This document shows, one piece after another, positions 727 to 52,928 of a DNA stretch of 64,000 bases (within the stretch, counting starts at the first letter, position 1; every line of letters begins with the position of its first letter). The notes below the pieces were generated by a model, which worked only from the letters and a program-made list of their open reading frames with translations, ran no database searches and was not told the DNA's origin. The translations under genes and the position numbers were made by a program. The DNA lies in NCBI GenBank assembly GCA_029858565.1, contig JAOUEV010000012.1:278-64277 (forward strand), read 5' to 3'. This DNA is from Nitrospirota bacterium. Its GTDB lineage: Bacteria; Nitrospirota; UBA9217.

Positions 727-3162
727 TTACTTCTTCAGCTCCGCCACCGTGGCGCCCGCGCCGCCCTCGGCAGGCTCGGCCGGCCGGATGGAGGACACGA
801 GCGGATGGCCCTTGAGGAACGCTGTCACCGCGGCCTTGAGCGCGCCGGTGCCCAGGCCGTGCACCACGAGCACCTGGCCGAATCCCTGCATGCTCGATCG
901 ATCGATGAAGCGGGCTGTTTCTTCGAGGGCCTCGTCCACACGCATGCCGAGCAACATCACTTTGTCGGGCAGGCCTTCGCGTTCCTGGAGCTCGGCTTTC
1001 CACCCGGAAGCAACAGCGGCTGCCGGCGAACCCTGTTTCGCCTGTTCAACAGGAACGACCGCTGCGAGCGGCAGCTTCAGCTTCATGCCGTTGCTGTCGA
1101 CCTCGACCGCGTCCTTGTGCAGGAAGAGCACGGTCCCGGTCCTGTTCAGTCGCGGCATGCGCACGCGGTCGCCCGCATGGAGGGCATGGCTGACCGCGCT
1201 GGCAGTCTCGAAGAGCGCTTCTTCCGCAGGTTCGAGCTGCCTGCTCAGCTCATTGATCCCTGACCGTTCCGCTTGAATATCTGACGGGGTCATGGATGCC
1301 GTGCGCGAAAATTCCTTCAGCTTCGTCCGGAGGCTTGACAGCACTTCCCTCGCGTCCTGACGGGCCTTGGAACGGGCTGTGCGCGCTTCCTCGGCAGCTG
1401 CTTTTGCGGAAGCCTCGGCGTCCGCCTTGAGAACCGCCGCTGTCCGCCGGTCCGCTTCCGCCTGCTCCCGCTCGGCCCGAAGCCTGCGCGAATCATCCTC
1501 CAGCTGCTCCAGAAGCCGGTCGAGACCGGCTTCGCCTCCGCTGATCCTCGACCGCGCGTCATGAATGACGCTGTCAGGAATGCCGAGCCGCTTGGCCAGG
1601 TCAAGACCGTAGCTCCGTCCCGGCCTGCCGGGAATGAACCGATAGGTCGGCTTCAGCGTCTCGGGATCGAACTCCATGGCCGCGTTCACCGCGCCGGCCG
1701 TGCGCGCTCCGAAGAGCTTCAGGCTTCCGTGGTGCGTCGTCACCACGGTCATGCATCCCCGCTCCAGGAGCTTTGCCAGGACCGAGGAACCGAGAGCCGC
1801 GCCCTCGGAGGGGTCGGTGCCCGTGCCGAGCTCATCAAGCAGCACCAGGGAGCCTGCATCCGCTTCCCGGAGGATCTCCGCGATCCGGCTGATGTGCGAG
1901 GAGAACGTGCTCAGGTCCTGCTCCAGGTCCTGCTCGTCCCCGATATCCGCGAAGAGGTCTTTGAACACCGGGACTTCGCTGCCCTCCGCCGCGGTCACCG
2001 GCATGCCGGCCTGGGCCATGAGGCTGAGCAATCCGACCGTCTTCAGGATCACGGTCTTGCCGCCGGCATTCGGCCCGCTGATGATGAGCGCTCGCCGGTC
2101 TTCAGCGAGTTCCACGTCGTTCGGCATGACGTCGAATGCAGCAGGCGCGGTCTTCCGTTTCCAGACCAGCAGCGGATGGCGCGCTTCCCGGAGCAGGAGA
2201 CGGTTCGCCGGGCTGATCGCGGGGATCGTCGCTCCGCATTCCTTCGCGAACCGGCCGCGGGCGTGGACCTCGTCAAGCCCGGTCACCGCATCAAACGTTC
2301 CCGCGATCTCCCCGGCATGCCCCGCCAGAAGCGACGTAAGCTCCCGGAGAATGCGCTCCACCTCGTCGCGCTCATCCATGCGCAGTTCGGCAAGGCGGTT
2401 GTTCTGTTCCAGCACATCGATCGGTTCCACAAAAAGCGTGGCCCGGGAACCCGAGTGGCCATGCACCACGCCGGTCAGCCCCTGCCGGAAGTTCGGCTTG
2501 AGCGGGATAACGTAGCGGTCGTCACGGACCGTGACCACCTGTTCCTGCACGATGTTCTGCGAATCGGCCTGGCGCAGGATCTTGCCCATCCGGTCAAGGA
2601 TGTCGTCCCGCGTCCTGGCGATCAGCTTGCGCAAGCGCCGCAGCTCCGGGCTCGCGGAATCCTTCACCTCGCCTGTCTCGTCCACCGTCGCCGAGATCCG
2701 GTCCTCGATGTCCTTGAGAACGACGATGCGGCCTGCGCGGGAGCAGAGGAGAGACGCCCGCTGCTGTGATCCGGCCGATGGCGCGTCTTCTATCCTCCGG
2801 AAGAAGGCCTTGATCCTCCGGGCAGCGCCGAGCGTGGAGCCGAGCGCAAGAAGTTCCGCAGGCTGCAGGATCGTCCCGGCCACGGACATCCTTTCGAGGG
2901 ACTGCCCGATGGCCTGCACTCCGTCAAAGGGCGGCTGTTCACCTTCCTGGAGGATCTGCAGGAACTCAGCCGCTTCCCCGAGCCGTTCCCCGACAACAGC
3001 ACGCTCGGTCGAGGGCTGCGCGCTTTGGGCCCGGTCCCTGCCCGGCTCGGTTGCAGCAAAACGGGCTACGATCTCCCGCGCTCTATCGTATTCCAGGACC
3101 CGCAGTGCGTGATCGTTCATGTGCCTGATCATCCCCGCTTCACGCGCGTGAACCCGGAACAT
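727..3162 (-). CDS. mutS2: Endonuclease MutS2 (MutS domain + C-terminal Smr domain)
   Basis: 811-aa ORF with Walker A LIISGPNAGGKTVILKTVGLLSLMAQAGMPV and a C-terminal Smr-like VLVVHGLGTGALKAAV segment. The true start is probably the internal Met at ~3120 (MNDHALRVLEYD), which would remove the overlap with the upstream gene. Confidence 0.9.
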   Translation of the reverse strand: MFRVHAREAGMIRHMNDHALRVLEYDRAREIVARFAATEPGRDRAQSAQPSTERAVVGERLGEAAEFLQILQEGEQPPFDGVQAIGQSLERMSVAGTILQPAELLALGSTLGAARRIKAFFRRIEDAPSAGSQQRASLLCSRAGRIVVLKDIEDRISATVDETGEVKDSASPELRRLRKLIARTRDDILDRMGKILRQADSQNIVQEQVVTVRDDRYVIPLKPNFRQGLTGVVHGHSGSRATLFVEPIDVLEQNNRLAELRMDERDEVERILRELTSLLAGHAGEIAGTFDAVTGLDEVHARGRFAKECGATIPAISPANRLLLREARHPLLVWKRKTAPAAFDVMPNDVELAEDRRALIISGPNAGGKTVILKTVGLLSLMAQAGMPVTAAEGSEVPVFKDLFADIGDEQDLEQDLSTFSSHISRIAEILREADAGSLVLLDELGTGTDPSEGAALGSSVLAKLLERGCMTVVTTHHGSLKLFGARTAGAVNAAMEFDPETLKPTYRFIPGRPGRSYGLDLAKRLGIPDSVIHDARSRISGGEAGLDRLLEQLEDDSRRLRAEREQAEADRRTAAVLKADAEASAKAAAEEARTARSKARQDAREVLSSLRTKLKEFSRTASMTPSDIQAERSGINELSRQLEPAEEALFETASAVSHALHAGDRVRMPRLNRTGTVLFLHKDAVEVDSNGMKLKLPLAAVVPVEQAKQGSPAAAVASGWKAELQEREGLPDKVMLLGMRVDEALEETARFIDRSSMQGFGQVLVVHGLGTGALKAAVTAFLKGHPLVSSIRPAEPAEGGAGATVAELKK

Positions 3163-4094
3163 TCCAGAACCTCGAAGCTCTGCTGCTTCTGCACCGCATC
3201 GAGCAGAAGGTTCAGCCCCAGCGTATCGCTCGAAATGTGACCGGCTATGACCACCCGGAGGTGATGCTTCTCCGCCTCCTTGCGGTGGTCATCGGGGAGA
3301 TGCATGCAGACCATGGTGCCGATCCCTGCCTGTGACATCCGCTCGATCGTGTCCTTGGACCCCGAGGTTCCGCCGGTCATTTTCACGAATATCTTCCCGC
3401 ACCGATGCTCCTCGGCGCCGACAAGGATGCGCGGGCCGGCATTCTGACGCTCAGCCTCCTGGTACTCGGGGATGGCCCGGAGCAGGGCCAGCAGGTCGCG
3501 CAGTTTCTCGGGCTGCGCGCGATCGAACAGCGACTGGATAAAACCCTGGACCATGTTGTCCGCCGGCGAATGCAGACAGGCAAAGGGGAGATCAAGGAGC
3601 CGCGCGGCATCCACCGGCCTCCGGTGGTTCGCCGGAAGCACGCTTCGCTCCACTTCCCGCATCCGGTCGGCGATCTGCGATTCTGCGACCGTGATCGGCA
3701 CGCCGAACCGGTGCAGGATGTCGGCCTGCATCTTCATGACCTCGTAGAAGTTCGCGTAGGCCCTTCCTTCGGGATGATGGGCCAGCACCAGGTCGATGCC
3801 TGCGCCCTTCTCGTTCAGGCGGTCGGCAAGCAGCAGTTCCGGGGTCTCGATATCGATGCCTGCGAGGATCTTGCGTAACGGCCGGTCAGGATCTCCATGA
3901 AGGATCCTGCTGTCGGCGTAGGGGTTGGTCAGTTTGTCGCGGTCAAAGGCCCCGGCATCGCCGGGCTGTGTCTTTTCCTGAGCCTTCCGCGCCTCCGTCA
4001 GGTCGCGCTCGGCCGCGGCCCGGCCTCGCGGATCCGCGTCCATGCCCGCGCGGAGGGCGTGCTCGAAGAACTCTCCAATGGTCAATGCGTTCAC
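3129..4094 (-). CDS. Nif3-like dinuclear metal center protein (GTP cyclohydrolase 1 type 2 / YqfO family)
   Basis: 321-aa ORF. Length and conserved His/Asp-rich segments (LVLAHHPEGRAY, VVIAGHISSD) match the NIF3 family. Confidence 0.7.
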   Translation of the reverse strand: MNALTIGEFFEHALRAGMDADPRGRAAAERDLTEARKAQEKTQPGDAGAFDRDKLTNPYADSRILHGDPDRPLRKILAGIDIETPELLLADRLNEKGAGIDLVLAHHPEGRAYANFYEVMKMQADILHRFGVPITVAESQIADRMREVERSVLPANHRRPVDAARLLDLPFACLHSPADNMVQGFIQSLFDRAQPEKLRDLLALLRAIPEYQEAERQNAGPRILVGAEEHRCGKIFVKMTGGTSGSKDTIERMSQAGIGTMVCMHLPDDHRKEAEKHHLRVVIAGHISSDTLGLNLLLDAVQKQQSFEVLECSGFTRVKRG

Positions 4095-4097
4095 TCC

Positions 4098-4136
4098 AAA
4101 AAAAAACAGGGGGCCTCATGCATCAGGGGCCCCCTG
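4098..4136 (-). terminator. Rho-independent terminator after yqeY
   Basis: Perfect inverted repeat cagggggcc/ggccccctg with a 10-nt loop. On the minus strand it is followed by a run of 9 T, immediately 3' of the yqeY stop. Confidence 0.7.
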
Positions 4137-4183
4137 TCGTCGTAGCGGATCACGTATGCTGCTGTGGTCCATGCATCGTATGT

Positions 4184-4630
4184 TTATCCCAATGCATGCT
4201 TTACCAGCTCGCTCACCAGCTTATTGTCTGCCCGTCCGGCAATTACCGGCTGGACCGCTTTCATCACCTTACCCATGTCCTTGGCGCCCTGAGCTCCGGT
4301 CTGCGAAATAGCTTCGCGCACCATGCGCTCCACTTCCTCGCGAGGCAGCTGCTTGGGCAGGTAGACCTCGAGGAAAGCCGCCTCCGCGGTCTCCTTGTCC
4401 GCCAGGTCCTGGCGGCCGGCCTTGGTGAACTGATCGATGGAATCCCGGCGCTGCTTGATGAGCGAGCGGACCGTGTCCTGCACGTCACTGTCGGTCAGTT
4501 CAGCCGGCCGTTTTTCGATCATCTTGTTCTTGATCGCCGCGGACAGCATCCGGAGGGCCGAAACTTTGTCCTTGGCCCCGGACTTCATGGCATCCTTGAT
4601 GTCGCTATCGATCTGTTCCCGAAGTCCCAT
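4184..4630 (-). CDS. yqeY: GatB/YqeY domain protein
   Basis: 148-aa protein with a typical YqeY pattern (KDAMKSGAKDKVSALRMLSAAIKN ... GAKDMGKVMKAV). Lies directly downstream of rpsU, the common rpsU-yqeY arrangement. Confidence 0.85.
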   Translation of the reverse strand: MGLREQIDSDIKDAMKSGAKDKVSALRMLSAAIKNKMIEKRPAELTDSDVQDTVRSLIKQRRDSIDQFTKAGRQDLADKETAEAAFLEVYLPKQLPREEVERMVREAISQTGAQGAKDMGKVMKAVQPVIAGRADNKLVSELVKHALG

Positions 4631-4666
4631 GCACTCCCCTCGGCAATGCCTGATCTGACCCAGGAA

Positions 4667-4867
4667 CTAGCCGTTCCTGAACATACGCGCGGTCTTTGCC
4701 GCCTTCTTGCGCGCGGCGATCGCCTTCTTCTTCTTCTTCACGCTCGGCTTTTCGTAATGCTCGCGCTTCTTCACCTCGGAAAGGATGCCTTCCTTTTCGA
4801 TGCTCTTCTTGAACCTCCGAAGCGCTGCTTCAAAGGGCTCGTTGTCGCGTAATCTGATGCTCGGCAC
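4667..4867 (-). CDS. rpsU: 30S ribosomal protein S21
   Basis: [48 protein letters not shown]... matches S21. GTG start at 4867 is preceded by GGAGG 6-10 nt upstream on the minus strand. The longer track ORF (to 4945) has no RBS. Confidence 0.85.
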
Positions 4868-5075
4868 AGTAACCCACACCCCCCTCCCACAACAACTCAT
4901 TGATAATCCAACGAATTCCTGTCGTTTGTGATACAGGACTGTCATCCGACCTGGAATGTTGGGTATATACGAAGTGATAAATTAACAACTCCGCATCTGG
5001 TTGTCAAGCAGAATTTTCTGTTTTTTTAAGAGGTTCCGGCTCTTTTCAGACCGGACCTGCTTGCACGCGGACCAC

Positions 5076-6281
5076 TCAGCTCCGATAGGCTGCGTTGATC
5101 TTCACATACTCGTAGGAGAGATCGCAGGTCCAGACGGTTGCCTCGCCTTTTCCCTTGCGAAGATCGATCAGGATATGGACCTCCCGCTGCTTGAGCGAAG
5201 CGGTCGCCTCCTTGTCCGCTGCCTTGCCAAGGCCCACTCCCCGCTCAACGATCTTTGCTTTTCCGAAAGTGATGTCGGTCCGCGTCTCTTCCATATCAAC
5301 ACCGCAGCTCCCGAGCACGGCCATGATCCGGCCCCAGTTGGCATCCTCGCCAAAAAGCGCTGTTTTGACGAGGCTGGACGTCGCAACAGCTGTTGCAGCG
5401 CGCTTTGCCTCAGCGGGATTCTTGGCACCCTGCACCGTGATCTGCACCAGCTTCGTGGCGCCCTCGCCGTCCTTCACCACCTGCAGGGCAAGGGATTTCG
5501 TCACCGCGTCCAGGCAGGCCTGGAGTTTTTTCATGTCCTTGCTGCCCGGCGCCGGCTTCTTGTTCTCTGCTGCGCCGTTCGCCATGACCAGCACCATATC
5601 GTTGGTGCTCATGTCGCCGTCCACGGTGATCGCGTTGAACGAGCGCTCCGTGGCCGACTGCAGCATCTTCTTGAGCACCGGCGCCGCGACGGCCGCGTCG
5701 GTCACGATGAAGCACAGCATGGTCGCCATACCCGGGTGGATCATGCCTGAGCCCTTGGCGATACCGGCCATGGTGATGGTCTTCCCGTCGATCTGCTCCT
5801 GAACGGCGACTGTCTTGACAAAGAGGTCCGTGGTCATGATCGCTTCCGCGGCCTGGCTCCAGCCCGCCGGCGCAAGAAGCCCCCCGGCTGTGGCGATCCC
5901 GGTGCGGACCTTCTGCATGGGAAGCAGCTCGCCGATCACTCCGGTCGAGGCAACATACACCATATCGGGTTTCACACCCAGTTCCTGGGCAGCGATCTCG
6001 GCTGTCTCTTTGGCGTCAGCGAGCCCCTGCTTGCCGGTACACGCGTTGGCGCACCCGCTGTTCACCACGATCACCTGGCCTTTGCCGGATTTCGATTTTG
6101 CCATGCCGAGCACTATGGACGCTGCCTTGACCTTGTTCTGCGTGAACACGCCGGCAACGGCCGCCTCGCGATCGGAGGCGATGATCGCGAGGTCCTTTTT
6201 ATCGGTCTTCTTGATCCCGCAGTGGATGCCCCAGGTCTTGTAACCGGGGACGGTGAAGTTCTTTGCATCGAGATTTTTCAT
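5076..6281 (-). CDS. argJ: Bifunctional glutamate N-acetyltransferase / amino-acid acetyltransferase ArgJ
   Basis: 401-aa ORF with the self-cleavage ATML motif (GMATMLCFIVTDA) and overall ArgJ pattern. Confidence 0.9.
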   Translation of the reverse strand: MKNLDAKNFTVPGYKTWGIHCGIKKTDKKDLAIIASDREAAVAGVFTQNKVKAASIVLGMAKSKSGKGQVIVVNSGCANACTGKQGLADAKETAEIAAQELGVKPDMVYVASTGVIGELLPMQKVRTGIATAGGLLAPAGWSQAAEAIMTTDLFVKTVAVQEQIDGKTITMAGIAKGSGMIHPGMATMLCFIVTDAAVAAPVLKKMLQSATERSFNAITVDGDMSTNDMVLVMANGAAENKKPAPGSKDMKKLQACLDAVTKSLALQVVKDGEGATKLVQITVQGAKNPAEAKRAATAVATSSLVKTALFGEDANWGRIMAVLGSCGVDMEETRTDITFGKAKIVERGVGLGKAADKEATASLKQREVHILIDLRKGKGEATVWTCDLSYEYVKINAAYRS

Positions 6282-6361
6282 GGCCCTTCCTCTTATGAAA
6301 GAGTTGCCCCGAAGCGCCGCGTCCGGCTGATTCTCGGGGATTCACATCCTGTTCGCTTGTC

Positions 6362-7408
6362 TTACGGGAACAGCGCGGCAAACCGAAGGCCCGCTGTCTC
6401 CTCAAATCCCATCATGATGTTCATGTTCTGGACCGCCTGGCCTGACGCGCCCTTCACCAGGTTGTCGATGGCCGTCACAACAACGGCGCGGCCGGTCCGC
6501 GGATCGGCGTACACGCCGATGTCGCAGAAATTGGAACCCCGCACGTTCCGCACGTTCGGGAACTGCCCCAGGGGCAGCACGCGCACAAACGGCTCGTTCC
6601 TGTAGAACTCGTCGTAGATCCTGTGGAGCGCGCCGGTGTCCGCTTTCCCGGTCATGTTCGCATAGATCGTCGTCAGGATGCCGCGGTTCATCGGTACAAG
6701 ATGCGGCGTGAAATTGAGCGTCACCTGTTCGCCCGCGAGTATTGACAGCTCCTGCTCGATCTCGGGCGTGTGCCGGTGGGTGCCGATCTTGTACGCCATG
6801 AACGCTTCATTCGCCTCGGGATAATGGTAGGGAAGCGCGGGGCTTCTGCCTGCGCCGGACACTCCGGACTTGGAGTCGACCACGATCGTCCGATGGTCGA
6901 CCGCCTTGTTCCGGAGCAGCGGGGACAGTCCGAGGATAGCGCTCGTGGGATAGCACCCGGGATTGGCGATCAGCGATGCCTTTTTGATATCGTTCCGGTG
7001 CAGTTCGGGAAGACCATAGACAGCTGATTTGAGCAGATCGGGGTACTGATGGCAGTGCTCGTACCATTTCTCATAGACCGCGGGATCGGACAGCCGGTAG
7101 TCGGCGGAAAGGTCAACGACCTTGACCCCCAGCTTGTGGAATTGATAGCCTGCTTCCTGCGCGGTCACGTGAGGAAGCGCGAGAAAAGCGACGTCCGCTT
7201 TCTTCGCGATCCGTTCAGGATCAAGGGACTCGCAGACCAGGTCCGTGAGCTTGGCAAGATGGGGAAAGATGTCGGTGATCGGCTTGCCCGCGGACCGTTC
7301 CGACGTGATCGCGGTGACCTCGGCCGCCGGGTGATGAAGAAGGATGCGGAAGAGCTCCCCGCCCGTGTATCCGCTGGAGCCGACGATGGCTATTCTGAGT
7401 TTTTTCAT
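6362..7408 (-). CDS. argC: N-acetyl-gamma-glutamyl-phosphate reductase
   Basis: [24 protein letters not shown]-terminal Rossmann motif, catalytic Cys in ANPGCYPTS, 348 aa. Confidence 0.9.
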
Positions 7409-13508: not shown

Positions 13509-14140
13509 TGACTTCGCTCCGATCTTTAGCAGCCATCCTCCTGCTCCTTGGCACTTTCTCCGGCTGCTCCCTGCCGAAGATCGTATTCCTCCATGACCCA
13601 TTATCAGCGGACGAGCACACGCAGCTCGGCATTGCCTATGATTCCCAGCAAAAGCACGACCTTGCGCTGGACCAGTTCCGGCTGGCGATCAAGAAGGATA
13701 AGAAACACCTGGCCGCATGGAAGCTTCTGGCAGACCTTTCCTACCGCCTGAACGACCTCGACAGTGCTGTCTCGGCCCTTGAAAAGGCTATAGAACTGGA
13801 GCCGGCCTCAGGCGACAGCCGGAACAACCTGGCATGGGTGTATCTTAAGCAGGGAACGAACCTCAAGCAGGCCGCGACGATACTTGAGGAAGCGCTGATG
13901 CTTCACCCGGCGAACAGGCCTTATTACCTCGACACCCTGGGCATGGTCCTGCTGAAGCTCGGGAAAACGAAGGAGGCGGTCTCGGCGCTTGAGGAGTCGG
14001 CTCGCACCCTGCCCGCTGACAAACCAGAGGTACTGGCGGAAGCCTACGACCACCTTGCCCAGGCATACGACGCTGCGGGTAATAAAGATGGTCACGAGCG
14101 CTCGCTGATCAAGGCGCAGGTTCTTCGCAACAAAAAGTAA
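13505..14140 (+). CDS. TPR-repeat lipoprotein
   Basis: Signal/lipobox FSGC; 3-4 TPR-like repeats (LGIAYDSQQKHDLALDQFRLAIKKD, AWKLLADLSYRLNDLDSAVSALEKAIELEP, ...). ATGATGA overlap with the peptidase gene stop suggests translational coupling. Confidence 0.7.
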   Translation: MMTSLRSLAAILLLLGTFSGCSLPKIVFLHDPLSADEHTQLGIAYDSQQKHDLALDQFRLAIKKDKKHLAAWKLLADLSYRLNDLDSAVSALEKAIELEPASGDSRNNLAWVYLKQGTNLKQAATILEEALMLHPANRPYYLDTLGMVLLKLGKTKEAVSALEESARTLPADKPEVLAEAYDHLAQAYDAAGNKDGHERSLIKAQVLRNKK

Positions 14141-14219
14141 GGGGCTTTCGTATTTTAGTTGAAATTGCTTGATCCCCATGCACAAAAACAATCAATCCTG
14201 GAACAGTAACCCTTTTTTT

Positions 14220-14385
14220 CGCGCAAAGCCGCAAAGGCGCAAAGAAAGGCAATCCTGATACCGGTAACTATCTTAAACCGGCTGAAATATGCGAACATTT
14301 TGAAGTCTTCACATTTCCCACGGTATCTTTTCTTGAGCCTTTGACATTGTTTTCTTTGCGCGCTTTGCGGCTTTGCGCGAGACAG
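14220..14385. repeat. Small inverted-repeat element A (MITE/REP-like): triple 8-mer GCGCAAAG arrays in inverted orientation flanking a ~105-bp AT-richer core
   Basis: Left arm gcgcaaagccgcaaaggcgcaaag (14221-14244) matches the reverse complement of right arm ctttgcgcgctttgcggctttgcgc (14354-14378) with a 16-bp perfect core. Ends in gcgagacag. Sits in the atpB upstream intergenic region. Confidence 0.6.
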
Positions 14386-14576
14386 AAGTTAGCCATTGTT
14401 TTCAACTTTACTGCGAATGAACAAAAAGTAACCTCCTCCCAGCCCTCTTCATTAGCAAAAATATATATATTCATTAGGAAATTTAATGGTCCCTTTCCGG
14501 GTTTAGGCTTGACAAAAAAGTGGGGTTACTGTAGATTTTTTTACCTAGACCGTGTAACCGATAAAGGAGTGCCCCT

Positions 14577-15251
14577 ATGAAAGAAGGACCGGTAGTCCTC
14601 CATAACTCGCTTGTTGCCGACCATGTGTCCTACACCTGGTTCACCATGGCGATCCTGATCGGCCTGGCGCTGATCGCGCGGGCTTCTCTCAAGCGGGATG
14701 CGCCCACGGGCGTTCAGAACGTGTTCGAGGTGATCTTTGACGGCCTGAACGGCTATGTGGACGAGATCATGGGACCCCATGGTCACCAGTATTTCACCCT
14801 GGTCGGCACGCTCTTTCTGTTCATCCTTACGGCGAACATCATCGGTCTCATCCCCGGATTCAACTCGCCCACGGCGAACATCAACACCACCGCGGCTCTG
14901 GCGATCACGGTCTTTGCAGCGACCCATATCATCGGCGTTGCTAAGCACGGTCTCTCCTACTTCAAGCATTTCATGGGGCCTGTTTCCTGGCTCGCGCCGC
15001 TCATGATCCCCATCGAGGTCATCAGCCATCTGGCCCGGCCGGTATCCCTCTCGTTCCGTCTTTTCGGCAATATGGTGGCAAAACATGAACTCATGCTCGT
15101 GCTTGCGGCCCTGGCCCCGTTCCTGGCTCCGGTGCCGATCCTCGGCCTGGGCCTGTTCGTGGCCTTTGTGCAGGCCGGCGTGTTCACGCTCTTGACCATG
15201 CTCTACCTCGCGGGCTCCATCGAGGAAGCCCACGGCAGCGACCATCACTAA
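14577..15251 (+). CDS. atpB: F0F1 ATP synthase subunit a
   Basis: 224 aa, 5-6 TM; conserved Arg region [20 protein letters not shown]. Confidence 0.9.
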
Positions 15252-15262
15252 TTCGCAATTAC

Positions 15263-15300
15263 GGTAGGGGCAGGTTTAAAACCTGCCCCTACAAATTTTT
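15263..15300 (+). other. Perfect 14-bp palindrome hairpin between atpB and atpE followed by a short T-run
   Basis: gtaggggcaggttt/aaacctgcccctac then aaatttttaaacc. Possibly an attenuator or processing site for atpB:atpE stoichiometry. Confidence 0.4.
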
Positions 15301-15406
15301 AAACCTCGGAGGATGTCGTTCCCGCAGACGCGGGAGTCCCCGGGAGGTAGCGCCCCGGCATGATTCCGGACAAGATTTGCACTTTTGGAGAAAGGAGGAC
15401 AACCTC

Positions 15407-15727
15407 ATGAAAAAGCTTGCTCTTCTCGTTATGTCCCTCAGCATGGTCCTCGTTGCCGCAGCTGCATTCGCGAGCGAGGGCGCCGCAGCTCCTGCTGCAG
15501 CCGCTGCGTCCACCGGCATTTCCGCCGCGGTCGCCGCGCTCTTCGCCATCGCCATCGCGGCGTTCGGCGGCAGCATCGGCATGGGCCTCAGCATCAGCAA
15601 GGCCGTTGAAGGCATCGCCCGCAACCCCGAGGCGTCCGGCAAGATCATGACCACCATGATCATCGGTCTGGCGCTGATCGAGTCGCTGGCCATCTACACC
15701 CTGGTCATCATCTTCATCAAGGCCTAA
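15407..15727 (+). CDS. atpE: F0F1 ATP synthase subunit c with N-terminal signal-like extension
   Basis: RBS AAAGGAGG then ATG at 15407. C-terminal ~75 aa is a canonical c subunit ([45 protein letters not shown]). The N-terminal ~30 aa [25 protein letters not shown] is hydrophobic and signal-peptide-like. Confidence 0.9.
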
Positions 15728-15750
15728 GGGTAGATATCGCAGTTCAGAAA

Positions 15751-15779
15751 GGGGACGGTGAAAACCGTCCCCTTTTTTT
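15751..15779 (+). terminator. Rho-independent terminator after atpE
   Basis: ggggacgg-tgaaaa-ccgtcccc hairpin followed by TTTTTTT. Confidence 0.8.
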
Positions 15780-15798
15780 GTGCCTCATCCAGCCCCTC

Positions 15799-15827
15799 TT
15801 GACTTGTGTCACGTGACGCGTTACAAT
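15799..15827 (+). promoter_or_regulatory. Sigma70-like promoter (TTGACT-17-TACAAT) with a 10-bp palindrome gtcacgtgac in the spacer (likely HigA operator)
   Basis: TTGACT at 15799-15804, 17-nt spacer, TACAAT at 15822-15827. The higB GTG start lies 7 nt downstream, which would make the transcript leaderless. Confidence 0.6.
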
Positions 15828-15833
15828 TCCCCA

Positions 15834-16115
15834 GTGATCAGATCGTTCAAGGACAGACATACCGAGCAGCTCTACATGACCGGAAAATCCAAACGGCTGC
15901 CCGGCGACATCCTGCAACGCGCAAGACGTCGGCTTGAATATATCGACCTTGCAACCTGTCTTGACGACTTGAAAGTTCCGCCCAGCAATCGACTGCATGC
16001 GCTTACCCGTAATCGAACCGGACAACATTCGATTGCGGTGAATGATCAATGGAGAATTTGCTTTCGGTTCAAAAAGGGCGATGCATTCGACGTAGAGATC
16101 ACTGATTACCATTGA
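15834..16115 (+). CDS. higB: Type II toxin HigB (RelE/ParE superfamily)
   Basis: VIRSFKDRHTEQLY...NDQWRICFRFKKGDAFDVEITDYH closely follows the Rts1 HigB pattern (MIKSFKHKGLKLLF...ANWRITFQFINGDAYILNYEDYH). GTG start chosen by homology. Confidence 0.8.
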   Translation: MIRSFKDRHTEQLYMTGKSKRLPGDILQRARRRLEYIDLATCLDDLKVPPSNRLHALTRNRTGQHSIAVNDQWRICFRFKKGDAFDVEITDYH

Positions 16116-16131
16116 GCGGAGAGAGAAAACC

Positions 16132-16437
16132 ATGAAGACACGGGAAAGAGCAATACGTCCGGTCCATCCAGGAGAGATGTTGCGGGAAGATTTTCTGCCT
16201 GATTACAACATGTCCGCATCATCTTTTGCCGCCGCGCTGGGCGTATCCCGCCAGACGGCCAACGAGCTTCTGAACGAGCGTCGGTCGGTCACGCCCGTGA
16301 TGGCCCTGAGCCTGTCCCGCTTATTCGGCAATACGCCTCTGTTCTGGCTGAACGCCCAGGCGGCCGTTGACCTATGGGAAGCCCAACGACGCAGCAAGGC
16401 CAAGCTGGCCCGCATACGACCGCTGACCGCTGCGTGA
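16132..16437 (+). CDS. higA: Antitoxin HigA (HTH XRE family)
   Basis: IRPVHPGEMLREDFLPDYNMSASSFAAALGVSRQTANELLNERRSVTPVMALSLSRLFGNTPLFWLNAQAAVDLWEA; toxin-upstream gene order typical of higBA. Confidence 0.85.
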   Translation: MKTRERAIRPVHPGEMLREDFLPDYNMSASSFAAALGVSRQTANELLNERRSVTPVMALSLSRLFGNTPLFWLNAQAAVDLWEAQRRSKAKLARIRPLTAA

Positions 16438-16442
16438 ACCAA

Positions 16443-16490
16443 GCCATAGCCATTTACACCCTGGTCATCATCTTATCAACGCAAGCCTGA
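16443..16490 (+). repeat. Decayed direct-repeat copy of the atpE 3' end, including a stop codon
   Basis: gccatagccatttacaccctggtcatcatcttatcaacgcaagcctga versus atpE 15689-15727 gccatctacaccctggtcatcatcttcatcaaggcctaa; 19 bp are identical (acaccctggtcatcatctt). Together they flank the higBA cassette. Confidence 0.75.
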
Positions 16491-16650
16491 TGAGCAAAGT
16501 GTCTTCGTGCCTGTTTTGTGAGAAATGGTTTTCTTTACGTTTACTTGTGTCTAGGGCAATGACTAATCTTTTTTCCCTTTTTCTCCCCATTCACCTGCGG
16601 TATAATAGCCCCTCGATATCATTGCTGAACAAAAGGAGTTGTTTCGAATT

Positions 16651-18093
16651 ATGAGTAATGTTCGCGTTCGTTTTGCCCCCTCCCCGACGGGCGCCCTGCA
16701 TATCGGCGGAGTCCGCACCGCCCTGTTCAACTGGCTCTTCGCCCGTCACCACAAGGGAACCTTCATCCTGCGCATCGAAGATACGGACCAGCAGCGGTCA
16801 ACCGACGAATCCATCCGTATCATCATCGACGGCATGAAATGGCTCGGCATGGACTGGGAAGAGGGACCGACCGTGCAGGCCGACGGAACGGTCAAGGGAT
16901 TTCGCCAGACCGAGCGCATGGACATCTACCGCGAGTATGCGGACCGGCTGCTGAAGGAAGGCAAAGCCTACTACTGCTACTGTTCGCCCGAGGAACTCGA
17001 CAGCCGCAGAAAAGCAGCCATGGCCGCTGGCAAACCGCCCAAGTACGACCGCACCTGCTTCGGCCGCAAGGAGCCCGTTTCCGGCAGGACCCCGGTGCTT
17101 CGTTTCCATTCGATCGACGAAGGACAGACCATTGTGCGCGACACGATCCGCGGCGCGGTCACTTTCGAGAACCAGCAGCTCGACGACCTGATCATCATGC
17201 GGTCCGACGGTTTTCCGACCTATAACTTCGCTGTTGTCGTGGACGACGTGACCATGAAGATCTCCCATGTGATCCGCGGTGACGACCACCTGAACAACAC
17301 GCCGCGCCAGATCCAGATCTACCGCGCTCTCGGGTTCGAACCGCCCGAGTTCGCCCATCTGCCCATGATCCTGGGTTCCGACAAGACCAAGCTGTCCAAG
17401 CGCCACGGCGCGACCGCAGTGACCGAATACAAGGACCTTGGTTACCTGCCCGAGGCCTTGATGAACTATCTCGCGCGGCTCGGCTGGTCCCATGGCGATC
17501 AGGAGGTCTTCTCCATTGCCGAACTGATCGAGAAGTTCACCCTCGACAACATCGGCAAAGCGCCCGCAGTGTTCAATCCGGAGAAGCTCGTCTGGCTGAA
17601 CCACCACTACATCCAGCAGTCTGACCCTGAGCGGCTTTCCGGCCTGGTGCTCGATCTCCTGAAAAAGGACGGCGTGGTTCAGGAAGGCAAGGAGCCCGAC
17701 GCAACATGGATGAACAAGCTCGTGAAGATCCTGACCGAACGGAGCCACACGCTGGTTGAGATGAAGACCTCGTCCCTGCCATTTCTCCAGGACAGCATCA
17801 CCATGGACGAAAAGGCCAGGGCCAAGCATCTGACGCCTGACGTGAAGCCGCTGCTTGAGGAACTTGCCGGGAAGCTCAAGTCGCTCGAACCTTGTTCCCA
17901 CGACGCAATCGAGAAGCTATTCAACGATATCGTGACGCCCAAGGGTGTGAAACTCGGCAAGCTGGCCCAACCGGTGCGCGTGGCCCTGACCGGCGGGACT
18001 GTCAGTCCGGGCATCTTCGACGTCATCGAGGTCATGGGGAAAGACCGGACCGTTGACCGCATCAACGCGGCGATCAAGATGATCAGCACATAG
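16651..18093 (+). CDS. gltX: Glutamate--tRNA ligase
   Basis: MSNVRVRFAPSPTGALHIGGVRTALFNWLFARHHKG (HIGH motif), KLSKRHG (KMSKS); 480 aa. AGGAG RBS; ATG at 16651 (the track start 16639 is TTG). A TATAAT -10 at 16603. Confidence 0.95.
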   Translation: MSNVRVRFAPSPTGALHIGGVRTALFNWLFARHHKGTFILRIEDTDQQRSTDESIRIIIDGMKWLGMDWEEGPTVQADGTVKGFRQTERMDIYREYADRLLKEGKAYYCYCSPEELDSRRKAAMAAGKPPKYDRTCFGRKEPVSGRTPVLRFHSIDEGQTIVRDTIRGAVTFENQQLDDLIIMRSDGFPTYNFAVVVDDVTMKISHVIRGDDHLNNTPRQIQIYRALGFEPPEFAHLPMILGSDKTKLSKRHGATAVTEYKDLGYLPEALMNYLARLGWSHGDQEVFSIAELIEKFTLDNIGKAPAVFNPEKLVWLNHHYIQQSDPERLSGLVLDLLKKDGVVQEGKEPDATWMNKLVKILTERSHTLVEMKTSSLPFLQDSITMDEKARAKHLTPDVKPLLEELAGKLKSLEPCSHDAIEKLFNDIVTPKGVKLGKLAQPVRVALTGGTVSPGIFDVIEVMGKDRTVDRINAAIKMIST

Positions 18094-18117
18094 ACCACCT
18101 GTTCACGGACCAATCAA

Positions 18118-19608
18118 TTGAACTATCGTATTCTTATCAGCGCAATTTTTTACACAGCTCTTTTCCTTGTCCTGCCGCTTTCGGCTTCGGCATCCACGAC
18201 CTATATCCCGGTTGGCGACGAGATCTATCCCCTGCTTGACCGGCTCGAAGCAGAAGGGGTCATCACGTCCGGGCTTCTCAATACCCGGCCGATCAGCCGG
18301 GCTGAAGCGGAACGCCTGTACCGGGAAGCGGAGGGGAATTCCGCCGGAAGCACCCTTTTTGTTAAGGACCTCGTCGGGTCCCTGCGGCGCAGACTTGGAT
18401 CTTCCACAACAGACCCTTCGAAGATCGGATACGGCGCTGCTGCCTATATCAGGTACATCCGCACTGATACAACGCTTCAGGCACTCCAGTACAATAACGA
18501 CGGAGACAAACCCGCGAAAGGTTCAAACCTGCGTGTTGGCGCTGACCTGCGGCTGGAGAATGCCGGTCCCTTTGCGCTGGACCTGAACCCGGAGTTTCTC
18601 GACACCGGCCCCGAGCGCGAAAATATCATGCATCACGGCTATGCCGTTGTCGGCATTGCAAGGTTCGATATGGTGCTCGGCAAGGACGCGCAATGGTGGG
18701 GCCCGGGGCGTCACGGAGCGCTCCTGCTCTCGAACAATGCCGATCCGTTCACCATGGTCCGGCTCACCAATCCCGAGCCCATAGTCCTTCCCTGGGTGTT
18801 CAAGCACTTGGGCGATTTTCGGTTCAGCTTCTTTATCACGCAGCTTGAACGGGACCGCGACTTTCCCGAACCCTACCTCTGGGGCATGCGGTTCGACTTC
18901 AAACCAGGCCGAACCTTCGAGGTCGGCATTCACCGGACCGCGATCCTCGGCGGAGAAGGCCGTCCCAACGATTCATCGATCTGGGGCAAAAGCCTCTTTC
19001 CCTTCTTCGACGCCGAGAACACCGGAACGATCAAGGAGCCGGGAGACCAGCGAGCAGGCTTTGATCTGACCTGGAGCATACCTGCCGGCCGCCAGCCCGT
19101 TCAACTATACCTTGAGATGGACGGCGAGGATGAAAAAAATAACCTGCCGAATATCTGGGCATGGATCGGCGGTGTGTATCTGCCCCGCATCGGCTCATGG
19201 GAACGGCTTGGTTTTCGCTTTGAGGTCGGTTCGACCATGGGCAGGCCCCTCGCGCCCTCGGTCTGGTACAATCACAGCATCTACACCTCGGGGTATACTT
19301 ATAACGGCAGGATCATCGGTCATCATATCGGGACCGATACCCGCGATCTGTATTTCGAACTCTCCTATCACCTGCCTGAGCGCGACAGCCGGTTCTTGAT
19401 CGCCTACGACCGACACGAGCACAATATGCGCGGCCCGGGAAGCAGCGAGATCGATCACGAAGCCATTGCGGGGGCCGACATGGCGCTATCCGATCACATC
19501 GGCCTGAAAGCTTTCTACAACCACGCCTGGGTCAGAAATTTCGGCAACCAGTTCGCGCCGATGCAGGAGATAGGCAGCTTTACCTGCGTGGTCAGCTATA
19601 CCTTTTAA
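18118..19608 (+). CDS. Capsule assembly Wzi-family outer-membrane protein
   Basis: Signal peptide, ~490 aa, beta-barrel-like composition ending in aromatic residues; overall resemblance to the Wzi family. Start codon uncertain (TTG at 18118). Confidence 0.55.
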   Translation: MNYRILISAIFYTALFLVLPLSASASTTYIPVGDEIYPLLDRLEAEGVITSGLLNTRPISRAEAERLYREAEGNSAGSTLFVKDLVGSLRRRLGSSTTDPSKIGYGAAAYIRYIRTDTTLQALQYNNDGDKPAKGSNLRVGADLRLENAGPFALDLNPEFLDTGPERENIMHHGYAVVGIARFDMVLGKDAQWWGPGRHGALLLSNNADPFTMVRLTNPEPIVLPWVFKHLGDFRFSFFITQLERDRDFPEPYLWGMRFDFKPGRTFEVGIHRTAILGGEGRPNDSSIWGKSLFPFFDAENTGTIKEPGDQRAGFDLTWSIPAGRQPVQLYLEMDGEDEKNNLPNIWAWIGGVYLPRIGSWERLGFRFEVGSTMGRPLAPSVWYNHSIYTSGYTYNGRIIGHHIGTDTRDLYFELSYHLPERDSRFLIAYDRHEHNMRGPGSSEIDHEAIAGADMALSDHIGLKAFYNHAWVRNFGNQFAPMQEIGSFTCVVSYTF

Positions 19609-19623
19609 CCGTTGCTCACTCGT

Positions 19624-20511
19624 ATGCAGCAGGTCATATCCGCAAGCCGCCGCACCGACATCCCCGCGTTCTACGGCGAATGGTTCCTCCATCGTCTTGC
19701 TGAGGGCTTCTGCGACGTCCTCCATCCCTATACAAAGAAGTGGTTCCGGGTCTCGCTCCGGCGGGAAGATGTCGGGGCTATTGTCTTCTGGTCCAAGAAC
19801 TACGCACCCCTCCTGCCGAAGCTTGACAGCGTCGAACGCACGACCAGGAACCTTTTCTTTCACTTCACCATAACGGGAAACCGCGACCTTGAGCTGCGGG
19901 TCCCGGATTTTCGCGAATCGATCGGGGACTATCTCTATCTCACCCGACGTTACTCCCCCGATCACCTCATCTGGCGTTTTGATCCCATCTGCATTACCGA
20001 TAAGCTTTCATACGTAACCTATGAGGAGCGCTTTGTTGCCTGTGCCGAGCTTCTCCAGGGCCATGCATCATCCTGCACCATCAGCTTTGCCCATCCCTAC
20101 CGCAAGATGATCAACAACGTCAGAAAGTATTCTTCCCATGTCCCTGTCGAGACATCCCCTGAGCAGCAGAAAGCATTTGCGGAGCGTCTCGCGCAGCGCG
20201 CGGAAACGTACGGCATCCGCCTCCTTGCCTGCTGCAACGACCACCTGCTCTCGGACCGGATCGGCAAGGCCCGGTGCGTCGACGGTAGAAGACTTTCCCT
20301 GCTTTTTTCGACATCACTGGAGACCCGGGCCGCGGCGTCCCGCAAAGGATGCGGCTGCACCAGAAGCGTCGACATCGGTGCCTACGACACCTGCGGCCAT
20401 GGTTGCTTATATTGCTATGCGAACAGGGACCAGGAAAAAGCGCGCAGCGCGCAGGGATTGATCGAACAGAACAGTACCGCGCTGACGCCAAAGCGCTCTC
20501 CAGGAACGTGA
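19624..20511 (+). CDS. DUF1848 domain protein (Cys-rich C-terminus CGCTRSVDIGAYDTCGHGCLYCYAN)
   Basis: ORF with ATG at 19624; conserved N-terminus ISASRRTDIPAFYGEWF and a C-terminal cysteine cluster typical of DUF1848. Confidence 0.5.
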   Translation: MQQVISASRRTDIPAFYGEWFLHRLAEGFCDVLHPYTKKWFRVSLRREDVGAIVFWSKNYAPLLPKLDSVERTTRNLFFHFTITGNRDLELRVPDFRESIGDYLYLTRRYSPDHLIWRFDPICITDKLSYVTYEERFVACAELLQGHASSCTISFAHPYRKMINNVRKYSSHVPVETSPEQQKAFAERLAQRAETYGIRLLACCNDHLLSDRIGKARCVDGRRLSLLFSTSLETRAAASRKGCGCTRSVDIGAYDTCGHGCLYCYANRDQEKARSAQGLIEQNSTALTPKRSPGT

Positions 20512-20513
20512 TC

Positions 20514-20984
20514 ATGCCGATCTGTATTGAAAGAAAACACCTCCTCACCGGATCCGTCCATACCTACCAATGCGAGCTGATCCACTTCGAGCCGGGTTTC
20601 GGCATCTTGAAGTACGTCATTGACCGGGAATATGTAATTGCCAATCACAGGCTCGCTCCCGGCGATATCACCTGCGCGCTCTATTGGGAAGACCGCCCCT
20701 ACACACTGTATATATGGAAGCTCGCGGACGCATCGGTTCTCCACTATTTCAATATCGCTGACCATGTGTCCCTCGCTGCAAACGAGTTCATCTGGCGCGA
20801 CCTGGTTATTGATATTCTGGTCGATCAGGGCGGCACCTCGCATGTCCTGGATGCCAACGAACTGCCGCAAGAACTGGACAAGGACCTGTTGACCTACATC
20901 CGCACTGCCCAGCAGCATGTCCTTTCAACGTACCCGTTGATCATGGAAGAGTCCCGCTCATTGCTCCAGCGCCACGGTTGCTGA
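20514..20984 (+). CDS. DUF402-like protein (possible nucleoside tri/diphosphatase family)
   Basis: 156-aa ORF starting at ATG 20514, right after the upstream stop. Motifs YTLYIWKLADASVLHYFNIADH and DILVDQGGTSHVLDANEL resemble DUF402. Confidence 0.4.
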   Translation: MPICIERKHLLTGSVHTYQCELIHFEPGFGILKYVIDREYVIANHRLAPGDITCALYWEDRPYTLYIWKLADASVLHYFNIADHVSLAANEFIWRDLVIDILVDQGGTSHVLDANELPQELDKDLLTYIRTAQQHVLSTYPLIMEESRSLLQRHGC

Positions 20985-21002
20985 CCCCGCATCTCCCGTA
21001 CG

Positions 21003-21726
21003 TTGTGTTATACTTTCTCCGGGAGACCGCTCATGCAACCAGACAACCTGCATCCACGCCTTAAGGAGATGGCCGCGAGCTATCCCGACAAGTTCGCTCC
21101 TGAGAACGTCATATTTTCCCACATCCATCCCGGCAACAGGATCTTCATCGGCACCGGCTGCGGCGAACCGCAAAGCCTTGTCCGGTCCCTGATCACCTAC
21201 GTCCAGTCCCACCCCAAGGCTTTTGTGGACACGGAGCTGCTCCAGGTCTGGGCACTTGGCGTGGCGCCTTATGCGGACGCCAAGTTCAAGGATAATTTCC
21301 GGTACAATTCCTTCTTTAGCTGAGCGGATCGGCAATTACGTGGCCCGCATTGTACAGGACGGGGACACCATCCAGGTCGGGTATGGAAGCATCCCCAATG
21401 CGATCCTCGGCCAACTCGCGGAGAAGAAGCATCTGGGCGTCCACACCGAGCTGCTGACCGACGGCATCGTTGACCTCATGAAGCGCGGCGTGATAGACAA
21501 CTCGCAAAAGGACCTGAACCGCGGCAAGACCGTTGCGGCCTTTTCCATGGGCAGGCGGGAGACCTACCGGTATCTTCATGACAATCCGGCCATCGAGTTC
21601 CGCCAGGTGAACTACACGAACAACCCCACGGCAAGAACGTGCGCGAACGCGCCATGGACCTCATTGCCATCGCTCATCCGAAGTTCCGGCCCGGCCTTAT
21701 CGAAGAAGCGAAGCGCAGGCACCTGA
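21003..21726 (+). pseudogene. Degraded acetyl-CoA hydrolase/transferase-family gene (4-hydroxybutyrate CoA-transferase-like): three collinear fragments in different frames with two internal ~100-aa deletions
   Basis: Frame A (21033-21323) matches the N-terminal ~90 aa (GNRIFIGTGCGEPQSLV...KFKDNFRYNSFF). Frame B (~21316-21630) matches the central IGxYVA..DGxTLQxGxGxIP segment (ERIGNYVARIVQDGDTIQVGYGSIPNAILGQL...VNYTNNP). Frame C (21639-) resumes at the family C-terminus (RERAMDLIAIAHPKFRPGLIEEAKRRHLI). About 110 aa are missing at each junction. Confidence 0.6.
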
Positions 21727-22301
21727 TCTACAAGGACCAGGCCTACGTTACCGGCACAGGAGGCGAGTACCCCGAGCATCTCGAAGCGTGGCGCACCACG
21801 CGGATCGGCGTTACCCTCCTTCTCCGGCCGGTCCGGATGAATGACGAACAGATGCTGAAGGATTTTTTCTACCACCTTACCACGGACAGCATGTATCACC
21901 GGTTCATTTCCACACGTACCGACATGCCCCACGAACGGCTCCAGAAGTTCGTGGCCATAGACTACAGCAGGGAGATGGTGATCCTGGCGGTCATGCGGGA
22001 AGAGGGCAAGGACGTGGTAGCGGGCATGGGCCAGTACATGATCGACGAGAAGTCACATACCGCGGAAGTGGCTTTTGTGGTGCGAGACGTGTACCAGGGA
22101 AAGGGTATCGGATTGACGCTGCTGACCTATCTGACCTTCCTGGCAAAGAAACAGGGCCTGCTCGGCTTCTCCGCGGTCGTGCTGCAGGACAACAAGCCCA
22201 TGCTGCATCTGTTCGAAAGCATGGGTTTCGTGGTGGAGAAGCGGCTTGACGCGGGGGTGTACGAACTGATGATGTCATTCAAGGAAACAGGGGAGGGATA
22301 A
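21639..22301 (+). CDS. GNAT-family N-acetyltransferase domain ORF (C-terminal part of the former hydrolase-GNAT fusion)
   Basis: The C-terminal 150 aa carry the GNAT acetyl-CoA-binding pattern (VRDVYQGKGIGLTLLTYLTFLAKKQGL). First in-frame ATG is at 21654. Intact ORF, but expression is uncertain because the upstream part is degraded. Confidence 0.55.
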   Translation: MRERAMDLIAIAHPKFRPGLIEEAKRRHLIYKDQAYVTGTGGEYPEHLEAWRTTRIGVTLLLRPVRMNDEQMLKDFFYHLTTDSMYHRFISTRTDMPHERLQKFVAIDYSREMVILAVMREEGKDVVAGMGQYMIDEKSHTAEVAFVVRDVYQGKGIGLTLLTYLTFLAKKQGLLGFSAVVLQDNKPMLHLFESMGFVVEKRLDAGVYELMMSFKETGEG

Positions 22302-22316
22302 AAAGGACCGCATTTT

Positions 22317-22491
22317 CCCGCACGAAGCCACGAAGGCACGAAGAGATCGTTAATTCATAAGACCGGCACCTTCAGGGAAAACGTGTTTTGACGCGCCATG
22401 TAATAATCAATTGGCCGGTGCGCAAACGTTGACTTTCTGAATTTCGAATTAGCCAGTTTTCTTCGCGGCTTCGTGCCTTCGTGCGAGACAG
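22317..22491. repeat. Small inverted-repeat element B, related to element A (triple 8-mer CACGAAG arrays, ends gcgagacag)
   Basis: Left arm cgcacgaagccacgaaggcacgaagag, right arm cttcgcggcttcgtgccttcgtgcgagacag. Same architecture and same terminal gttttctt(c/t)gcg...gcgagacag as element A at 14220-14385. Confidence 0.6.
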
Positions 22492-52402: not shown

Positions 52403-52928
52403 ATGATCCTCCTGAACAAATGGATTTTGGTCGAACTCCGGCCCGTTGATCTGCGCCGGTGGCGTTGGCTTTCGGTTCTGCTTGTTTTGTATGATCGGGG
52501 AAAGAGGGTTGCATGCCGGCGTTTTCCTGCGACGGATGATAATTGCCAATGCCCGCAACCCATCAGAACGGTACTACAAAAGGACTATCTTGTCAATTGG
52601 GCAATTTTTAGGGGAGAACTGCGAACAGTACCAGGCATTCCGGGACCGCTGTTCGTTCGCCCGTGCGAAGACCGCCTCGGTCCCGGCAGAACGCCGGCGA
52701 TGCTGACATTCTTCATGTTTGTGCGTGGGATCTCGCAACTTCAACTGAAATACGAAAGACCCTGAACCTTTCTGTTCACTTCTTTCGCATTTCAACCAAT
52801 GCAAATCGGCTTTTTTGCAAAGATGCAAATCAGAATGACCCGCCATCTTTAAGAATATCAATCACTTGCGTTTTGGCATGGCATCTGCAATATACAGGGC
52901 AGAAGTGAACGTTAAGGAGGAATGGATC

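Follow-up and report, generated by a model that had tools for sequence, protein, structure and literature searches.

In REPIN-RAYT systems, a small nuclease-type gene is flanked by inverted copies of its own repeats. The inserts known as 23S rRNA intervening sequences have inverted repeats at their boundaries, which pair into a long stem, and occur both in an ORF-less form of ~100 nt and in a form of ~450–750 nt with an ORF of ~120 amino acids that encodes a four-helix-bundle (S23p) protein. Published ISL3 elements and their miniature derivatives (MITEs) have inverted repeats that open with GGCTCTTCG and are flanked by 8-bp direct repeats. Finally, paired tandem-repeat ‘global regulator binding sites’ have been catalogued in Geobacter metallireducens and divided into classes 1–3 (Aklujkar et al. 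2009, PMC2700814); binding of IHF or HU was suggested for these sites, and IS110 and IS481 elements were described at a fixed distance from them.

Here we describe two elements, A and B, in a stretch of DNA of 64,000 nucleotides (the whole of the sequence analysed, hereafter ‘the window’) that forms a section of a 118-kb metagenome contig. Both are gene-less members of a widespread, barely described, cross-phylum family of hairpin cassettes. The hallmark of that family is an inverted pair of arrays (‘arms’), each consisting of 3–4 tandem C-R-C-R-R-A-G octamers.

Like REPs and REPINs, the members of this family are short palindromic intergenic repeats in many copies, and as in REPIN-RAYT systems a gene is flanked by inverted repeats whose variant recurs in gene-less copies of that genome. 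Unlike a RAYT, which is an HUH Y1 transposase, the flanked GxxExxY protein (PF13366/TIGR04256) has a predicted PD-(D/E)XK (Cas4/RecB-like) fold; in place of a single REP with a GTAG head there are arms made of tandem octamers; and the GxxExxY gene, unlike that of REPIN-RAYT systems, is often multi-copy and inside operons. The family shares with the 23S intervening sequences the long stem formed by bounding inverted repeats and the occurrence of a short ORF-less and a longer ORF-bearing form, whereas its cargo is GxxExxY and all of its copies lie between protein-coding genes rather than in rRNA. The Geobacter sites, like A and B, consist of arrays of 3–5 tandem 7–9-mers each, on opposite strands and at a variable distance (~100 nt), and are found in intergenic spacers and also inside operons; the array architecture has therefore been seen previously in one genome. 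The units of A and B differ from the three published Geobacter consensus sequences, of which class 2 is the nearest: its unit, TCTCCGTS[Y], reads CACGGAGA on the opposite strand, in agreement with C-R-C-R-R-A-G. That catalogue covers one genome, draws no link to MITE ends, target duplications or GxxExxY, and describes neither of the variants CGCAAAG and CACGAAG nor the GAGACAGG tail. In the literature that we searched (which covered few subscription journals) the cross-phylum spread, the packaging in MITEs and the tie to GxxExxY are undescribed, arm strings returned unrelated primer matches alone, and publications on intervening-sequence proteins yielded nothing relevant. GxxExxY (PF13366) is itself listed as a family of unknown function with multiple transfers.

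Two inverted array pairs in the window

Elements A and B each comprise an inverted repeat of ~180 bp without a gene. A is located between a TPR lipoprotein gene and atpB, and B where a GNAT gene and an FAD-binding gene converge, between their 3′ ends. Their inner features are:

14219–14247 (+): left octamer arm of A, TCGCGCAAAGCCGCAAAGGCGCAAAGAAA, three CGCAAAG units
14248–14350 (+): core of A, non-coding; homologous among subfamily-1 copies (see below) and poorly conserved
14351–14385 (+): right octamer arm of A, TTTCTTTGCGCGCTTTGCGGCTTTGCGCG, plus conserved GAGACAG tail
22316–22344 (+): left arm of B, three CACGAAG units; starts 15 nt past the GNAT stop codon
22345–22459 (+): core of B, non-coding; no relatives among 140 fetched loci
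22460–22491 (+): right arm of B, CTTCGCG, CTTCGTG, CTTCGTG, plus GCGAGACAG tail

The left arm of both elements is laid out as CGC followed by three [RCRAAG+N] units, with junction bases C, G and A in each copy; the right arm is the inverse of the left, with GTTTTCTT before it and GCGAGACAG after it. The unit is GCAAAG in A and ACGAAG in B (corresponding to octamers CGCAAAG+N and CACGAAG+N), and the choice is identical on both arms of each element. The cores (103–115 nt) are unrelated to each other. Four tandem-8-mer arrays exist in the 64 kb, all of them arms of A or B, and the same four places account for every cluster of at least three CRCRRAG units in the window; 50 shuffles contained none, which bears out the architecture of inverted triple arrays that an earlier note on this DNA had ascribed to both copies. 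The two elements are predicted to fold into long hairpins (z = −5.7 and −4.4).

In the core of A, we detected no similarity to the GxxExxY gene, and its secondary structure is not conserved. Neither A, B nor the family matches Rfam at the gathering threshold or at E ≤ 1, and the window contains no rRNA. An intrinsic terminator was ruled out for both elements, there being no T-run after the hairpin on either strand, as was an integron attC site, for which the ends GTTTTCTT and AAGAAAAC do not fit the R''/R' core sites (RYYYAAC / GTTRRRY).

An independent assembly of the region (L002, Logan contig SRR7132115_163036) corresponds to window positions 14361–22255, beginning within the right arm of A and stopping ~60 nt short of B. 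These breakpoints fit A and B elements being repeated or polymorphic and breaking short-read assemblies.

Size and spread of the family

GTDB genomes were scanned with a 23-base right-arm pattern in which the variable octamer positions were left open, and metagenomes with a slightly relaxed, 21-base version of it. The former matched 10 loci, all in MAGs (Nitrospirota, Gammaproteobacteria, Anaerolineales, Lentisphaeria and one bin labelled Halobacteria), and the latter more than 118 metagenome contigs; the arm pattern was unmatched in viral contigs and plasmids. These further copies preserve the architecture and establish that A and B belong to a real family, as the earlier note had surmised. 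An arm profile delineated 99 convergent arm pairs of 93–829 bp, with size modes near 125, 175–190 and 475–515 bp and the arm consensus GGTTTTCTTTGCGCCTTTGCGGCTTTGCGCGAGACAGG. In most pairs the two ends differ, one being ...GCGCGAAAA and the other ...GCGCGAGACAGG. Across 128 loci, no recurring transposase turned up between or beside the arms.

The right-arm type of B is also present at L132 8335–8434, L006 2858–2935 and L011 5868–5953. Close relatives of B were absent from the fetched loci, for which the scans used the A-type pattern.

Two of the MAG loci contain additional repeats. The locus labelled Halobacteria (L004) has GTCATTCCCGCGCAGGCGGGAATCC palindromes and CTCTGTG arrays of bacterial type together with an arm pair of gammaproteobacterial type, and its archaeal label may be a binning error. 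Positions 1–1260 of a Lentisphaeria locus (L012) are dense in other tandem oligomer arrays (GTGTCCAAAATG, GAAGTCAGGAG, three copies of a 24-mer, and GGCCCATAAG-like arrays), among which four same-strand copies of the right-arm motif are interleaved.

Copy A is contained in a 283-bp MITE

The conserved unit around A spans 14141–14423 (283 bp, without an ORF) and reaches ~80 nt and ~40 nt beyond the octamer arms. Its outer features are:

14133–14140 (no strand): left target-site duplication AAAAGTAA, 8 bp; includes the TAA stop of the upstream TPR-lipoprotein gene
14141–14164 (+): left terminal inverted repeat GGGGCTTTCGTATTTTAGTTGAAA; family consensus GGCTCTTTCGTATTTTAGTTGAAA
14165–14218 (+): leader, from the terminal repeat to the left arm
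14386–14399 (+): trailer, from the right arm to the right terminal repeat
14400–14423 (−): right terminal inverted repeat, TTTCAACTTTACTGCGAATGAACA on the + strand
14424–14431 (no strand): right target-site duplication AAAAGTAA, 8 bp

By hand comparison, the terminal repeats of A (14141–14164 versus 14400–14423) are complementary at 16 of 24 positions, and those of the family consensus at 19 of 24. The last ~35 nt of the leader is common to other subfamilies (..AACAG.AATT..TCAA..AAACC.ATTTT).

Seventeen near-full-length copies, which we term subfamily 1, share the core and outer sequence of A, with both ends recognisable in 13. The conserved unit of this subfamily opens with GGCTCTTTCGTATTTTAGTTGAAA, closes with its inverse (...TTTCAACTTTATTACGAATGAACC) and measures 281–301 bp. 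The copies have different flanks (two are on a single contig, L038), and no atpB or TPR homologue is found beside any of the others, which rules out a conserved atpB leader. The 8-mers that flank the two ends are identical in three of the 13 copies (A itself, L034 and L018) and match at seven of eight positions in L060 and L076, so that at least 7/8 agree in five of 13, as compared with 0.6% (8/8) and 4.5% (at least 7/8) of mispaired-flank controls. A second subfamily has other outer repeats (GTAACTACTCAGG...) and displays 8-bp duplications in L052, L061 and L124.

The terminal repeats of A and its 8-bp duplication appear ISL3-like, as judged from their resemblance to the published ISL3 ends. 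Neither the window nor the fetched loci yielded an ISL3 transposase. In common with ISL3-family MITEs (such as a Microcystis MITE, PMC11448079), A and subfamily 1 have no transposase, 8-bp AT-rich target duplications, terminal repeats that open with GGCTCTT(T)CG, and copies in unrelated contexts; unlike those MITEs, they hold a large internal hairpin module that is also found without these ends. Because the duplications in A and in subfamily 2 flank separate outer repeats, the octamer arms are an internal module and not MITE ends. A is enclosed by ISL3-like terminal repeats with an 8-bp target duplication outside them, and was therefore placed by DDE-type transposition, through which it arrived just past the TPR stop codon and upstream of the atpB promoter.

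These results revise one of the earlier readings of both elements, that of MITE-like units bounded by their arms. For A, the arms were located correctly, the element proves larger than proposed, and an exact 8/8 duplication (AAAAGTAA) stands at its borders; it is MITE-like, with its transposon ends being the outer, ISL3-like repeats rather than the arms. In B, neither an outer repeat nor a target-site duplication by which it could be classed as a MITE is recognisable, and it is a bare CACGAAG-type short form without recognisable borders. The role in the atpB promoter that had been suggested from a TTGACA hexamer in the core of A is not supported: no matching −10 element accompanies that hexamer, and the best sigma-70-like site (14509–14537) is downstream of A.

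Elsewhere in the window, at 52739–52762 (− strand), one ISL3-like terminal repeat of the type that ends A (GGGTCTTTCGTATTTCAGTTGAAG) stands alone, without octamer arms and without a partner end within 600 nt. Possibly it is left over from another A-type MITE in the same genome.

Arm pairs of 470–520 bp enclose a GxxExxY gene

All 13 arm pairs of 470–520 bp enclose a GxxExxY reading frame of ~125 codons. In nine of them this frame is intact, and in the other four (L047, L061, L062 and L068) it is truncated or frameshifted. The encoded protein matches TIGR04256 ‘GxxExxY protein’ (E 2e-42) and PF13366 PDDEXK_3 (E 1e-40). The upstream, purine-rich arm ends in AAAGAAAGGA (AAAGGA/GGAG), 6–12 nt before the start codon, and this end probably serves as the ribosome-binding site of the gene; roughly 0–50 nt separate the stop codon from the downstream arm. 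No GxxExxY gene is present in the 64-kb window.

A second set of GxxExxY genes was collected solely through the similarity of their proteins, a route that takes no account of the arms. Each one examined is flanked by inverted C-R-C-R-R-A-G arrays:

Contigs L111 (second cassette), L131, L132 and L142
Thioalkalivibrio sulfidiphilus and Endothiovibrio diazotrophicus, at the trpE–trpG site, as in L111
A Marinimicrobia MAG and a Fimbriiglobus MAG
Frigoriglobus tundricola, between argF and rph

Three cultured species are thus represented, with the cassette on megabase-scale replicons in the isolate genomes of T. sulfidiphilus and F. tundricola and on a 68-kb contig in that of E. diazotrophicus. We regard it as established that the octamer arms are a cis-element of GxxExxY cassettes. 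The unit variants of these cassettes (CGCAAAG, CGCAGAG, CGCGGAG, CGCGAAG and CACAAAG) are equal on both arms of one cassette and different between lineages. Every annotated gene cassette is co-oriented with both of its neighbours, often inside an operon (trpE–trpG, argF–rph).

Short forms were also found to coexist with gene forms that share their variant, a point that we likewise consider established. Gene-less pairs with the arm variant of a gene cassette lie no more than a few kb from it in L140 (5954–6051) and in L137 (339–446 and 4040–4121), the Endothiovibrio locus, where one such pair occupies each of two further trp-region spacers. In Fimbriiglobus the arms of a gene-less pair are almost identical to those of its own gene cassette. 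The variants may also be mixed: the short pair of L132 is of a different, B-type variant from its gene cassette, a B-type CACGAAG short pair being beside a CGCAAAG gene cassette in the Nitrospiraceae MAG. A derivation of the cores from GxxExxY by internal deletion finds no support, as short-form cores have no similarity to the gene at E ≤ 100.

The E. diazotrophicus locus (L137, 1–6378) reads rpe-gph-trpE-GxxExxY-trpG-trpD, with CGCAGAG/CGCGGAG array pairs in three intergenic spacers (339–446, 2930–3414 and 4040–4121). A cassette at one and the same trpE–trpG site in Endothiovibrio, T. sulfidiphilus and L111 has therefore been vertically inherited across genera. Two metagenome contigs close to T. 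sulfidiphilus (L134 and L135, ~3460–6378) carry, directly after the GxxExxY cassette, an island with a tyrosine integrase, LysR and TraI that starts ~25 nt into trpG.

Upstream of a gene starting MNVLIIS..., five contigs (L026, L027, L059, L069 and L094) share an orthologous site. All five keep the right arm with the ~30 nt that precede it; a left arm and a GxxExxY gene exist in L027 alone, and the corresponding sequence of the other four is unrelated. Evidently, the fate of cassettes is to decay to solo arms or to have their cargo replaced. At L066 (401–1229), an arm pair of 829 bp surrounds a 191-aa ORF that has no Pfam or NCBIfam match and therefore represents different cargo in the same arms.

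Genes for four-helix-bundle / 23S_rRNA_IVP proteins (PF05635) were also observed between inverted tandem arrays, at three sites:

L132, 2000–2371 (−)
L005, ~6225–6482
L068, 8718–9050

Their array units (GAAGTAA, TGCAGAA and ACAAATA) are unrelated to CRCRRAG. The layout of a gene in a hairpin therefore seems general for small genes of this kind, and CRCRRAG is specific to GxxExxY.

Constraint, co-variation and slippage of the arms

In nine gene-bearing copies the arms are 91% identical, as compared with 57% for third codon positions and 45% for the spacer between stop codon and arm; most loci were picked via the right-arm pattern, which inflates the arm value, and the set retrieved by protein alone is the fairer evidence that the arm sequence is constrained. 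In subfamily 1 the core and leader drift while the arms hardly vary, and the consensus fold consists of an outer stem and an arm stem and nothing else. That near-invariance accompanies an absence of compensatory pairs in the subfamily.

The earlier observation that the 8-mers change on both arms at once extends beyond A and B, in that arms co-vary within elements and, at the orthologous trpE–trpG site, in three genera. Where the two arms mismatch, the difference is mostly a transversion at the junction base, and wobble-compatible mismatches favour the sense strand (46 versus 22, p = 0.005). The number of units also slips: it differs between samples at a single locus in three cases (3 versus 2 in L046/L079, 3 versus 2 in L028/L129, and 3 versus 5 in L071/L088), which is direct evidence that unit number changes by slippage. 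We attribute the concerted change of both arms to slippage together with arm pairing. Short forms have no significant orientation bias relative to neighbouring genes, as assessed with crude ORF calls.

The GxxExxY protein

The structural model of GxxExxY (pLDDT 94.7) is nearest to the nuclease domains of Cas4, lambda-exonuclease-type enzymes and AddAB/AdnAB, in weak matches (E about 1e-3, TM about 0.5). On the strength of this model, GxxExxY is predicted to be a minimal Cas4/RecB-like PD-(D/E)XK nuclease. Sequence searches of solved structures found no homologue. A profile search returned 36,266 clusters at 50% identity (E ≤ 1e-3), two-domain forms included, and the top-scoring representative relatives (P0359–P0375) are proteins of ~240–295 aa that contain a tandem pair of GxxExxY domains. 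For the GxxExxY protein of L130, the closest homologues are mostly on contigs of 1–2 kb.

Discussion

The explanation that we favour, at a probability of about 0.5, is that A and B are short forms of GxxExxY hairpin cassettes and that the cassette is recognised via its arms. The full-length form would be that in which the arms directly bracket the ~125-aa GxxExxY gene, and the arms would be the sites of recognition. The most likely recogniser may be the cassette's own nuclease, acting on a DNA hairpin, a cruciform or the arrays themselves; of all the steps, this role of the nuclease at the DNA level is the one of which we are least sure. On this view the short forms would be non-autonomous derivatives that are spread in trans, as REPINs are by RAYTs, and in the lineage of A the hairpin module would additionally have been captured in an ISL3-type MITE. 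Those short forms that have target duplications bear DDE-type outer repeats, and the nuclease need not mobilise them. In a read-through transcript the arms could pair, sequester the ribosome-binding site and bracket the insert, a role that may hold alongside or instead of the spreading by the nuclease.

That last role leads to the alternative to which we give the most weight, while still considering it doubtful as the whole account: that the arms act mainly in RNA, where a ~28-bp stem brackets the insert, hides the ribosome-binding site and is either cut by RNase III or stabilises the message, in the manner of 23S intervening sequences or REP/BIME elements. A and B would accordingly be transcript-processing or stabilising hairpins, or harmless relics, which is compatible with our favoured explanation. 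The placement of the ribosome-binding site inside the upstream arm, the position of the arms within about 50 nt of the ORF ends, the co-orientation of annotated gene cassettes with their (often operonic) neighbours, the excess of wobble-compatible mismatches on the sense strand, the strong folding of A and B and the co-variation at the trpE–trpG site all agree with it. Pairing alone, however, leaves unexplained why C-R-C-R-R-A-G stays constant across phyla and between proteins that are 50–60% identical, and the use of unrelated units by four-helix-bundle cassettes, the lack of compensatory pairs in subfamily 1, the lack of orientation bias of the short forms and the lack of an Rfam match all weigh in the same direction. 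A function of the octamer arms as MITE terminal inverted repeats, to which a DDE transposase binds at multiple subterminal sites, would account for some gammaproteobacterial copies that are near-symmetric (CCTGTCTCGCGC at both ends of L003) and for possible 8-bp duplications in L109. We think it unlikely, given that the duplications of A and subfamily 2 lie beyond separate outer repeats, that most pairs are asymmetric (..GCGCGAAAA versus ..GCGCGAGACAGG), and that no transposase was found between or beside the arms in the 128 loci.

The hypothesis published for the Geobacter metallireducens pairs, in which the arrays are sites for a host nucleoid-associated or global regulator such as IHF or HU, would, if carried over to A, make it a modulator of atpB; it draws on the conserved unit and on a tandem 8-bp periodicity that suits cooperative binding. 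It strikes us as quite improbable for arrays that travel with one specific mobile gene and in MITEs with target duplications, that are also placed between convergent gene ends where no promoter exists (as for B), and whose unit variant changes between lineages and even within one genome; the promoter-like site of atpB, moreover, falls outside A. Chance low complexity, which the earlier note had named among the findings that would undo its proposal, or an assembly artefact can practically be dismissed: all 10 GTDB matches are indeed MAGs, but clusters are absent from the shuffles, the chance expectation of the 23-base pattern is far below 1, and the same architecture is present in the isolate genomes of T. 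sulfidiphilus, F. tundricola and E. diazotrophicus.

By analogy with REPIN-RAYT systems, we tentatively suggest a broader possibility, in which GxxExxY proteins are the nucleases of an unrecognised class of selfish hairpin cassettes, a PD-(D/E)XK counterpart of REPIN-RAYT. Each gene would be bracketed by cognate C-R-C-R-R-A-G arrays that are read by its own protein, and the protein would disseminate itself and gene-less pairs through the spacers and operons of many phyla, with A and B as non-autonomous offspring.

A very large protein family of no known function now has a concrete, testable cis-element attached to it, and the paired tandem-repeat sites of Geobacter, annotated as regulator-binding, are re-explained. 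The repeats may help to explain why the closest homologues of the cassette gene sit mostly on contigs of 1–2 kb. In many environmental phyla, these hairpins sit within essential operons (trp, arg and the upstream region of atp). If the link between nuclease and arrays is functional, it would represent a new type of bacterial mobile or selfish element, and would point to a new sequence- or structure-specific minimal nuclease.
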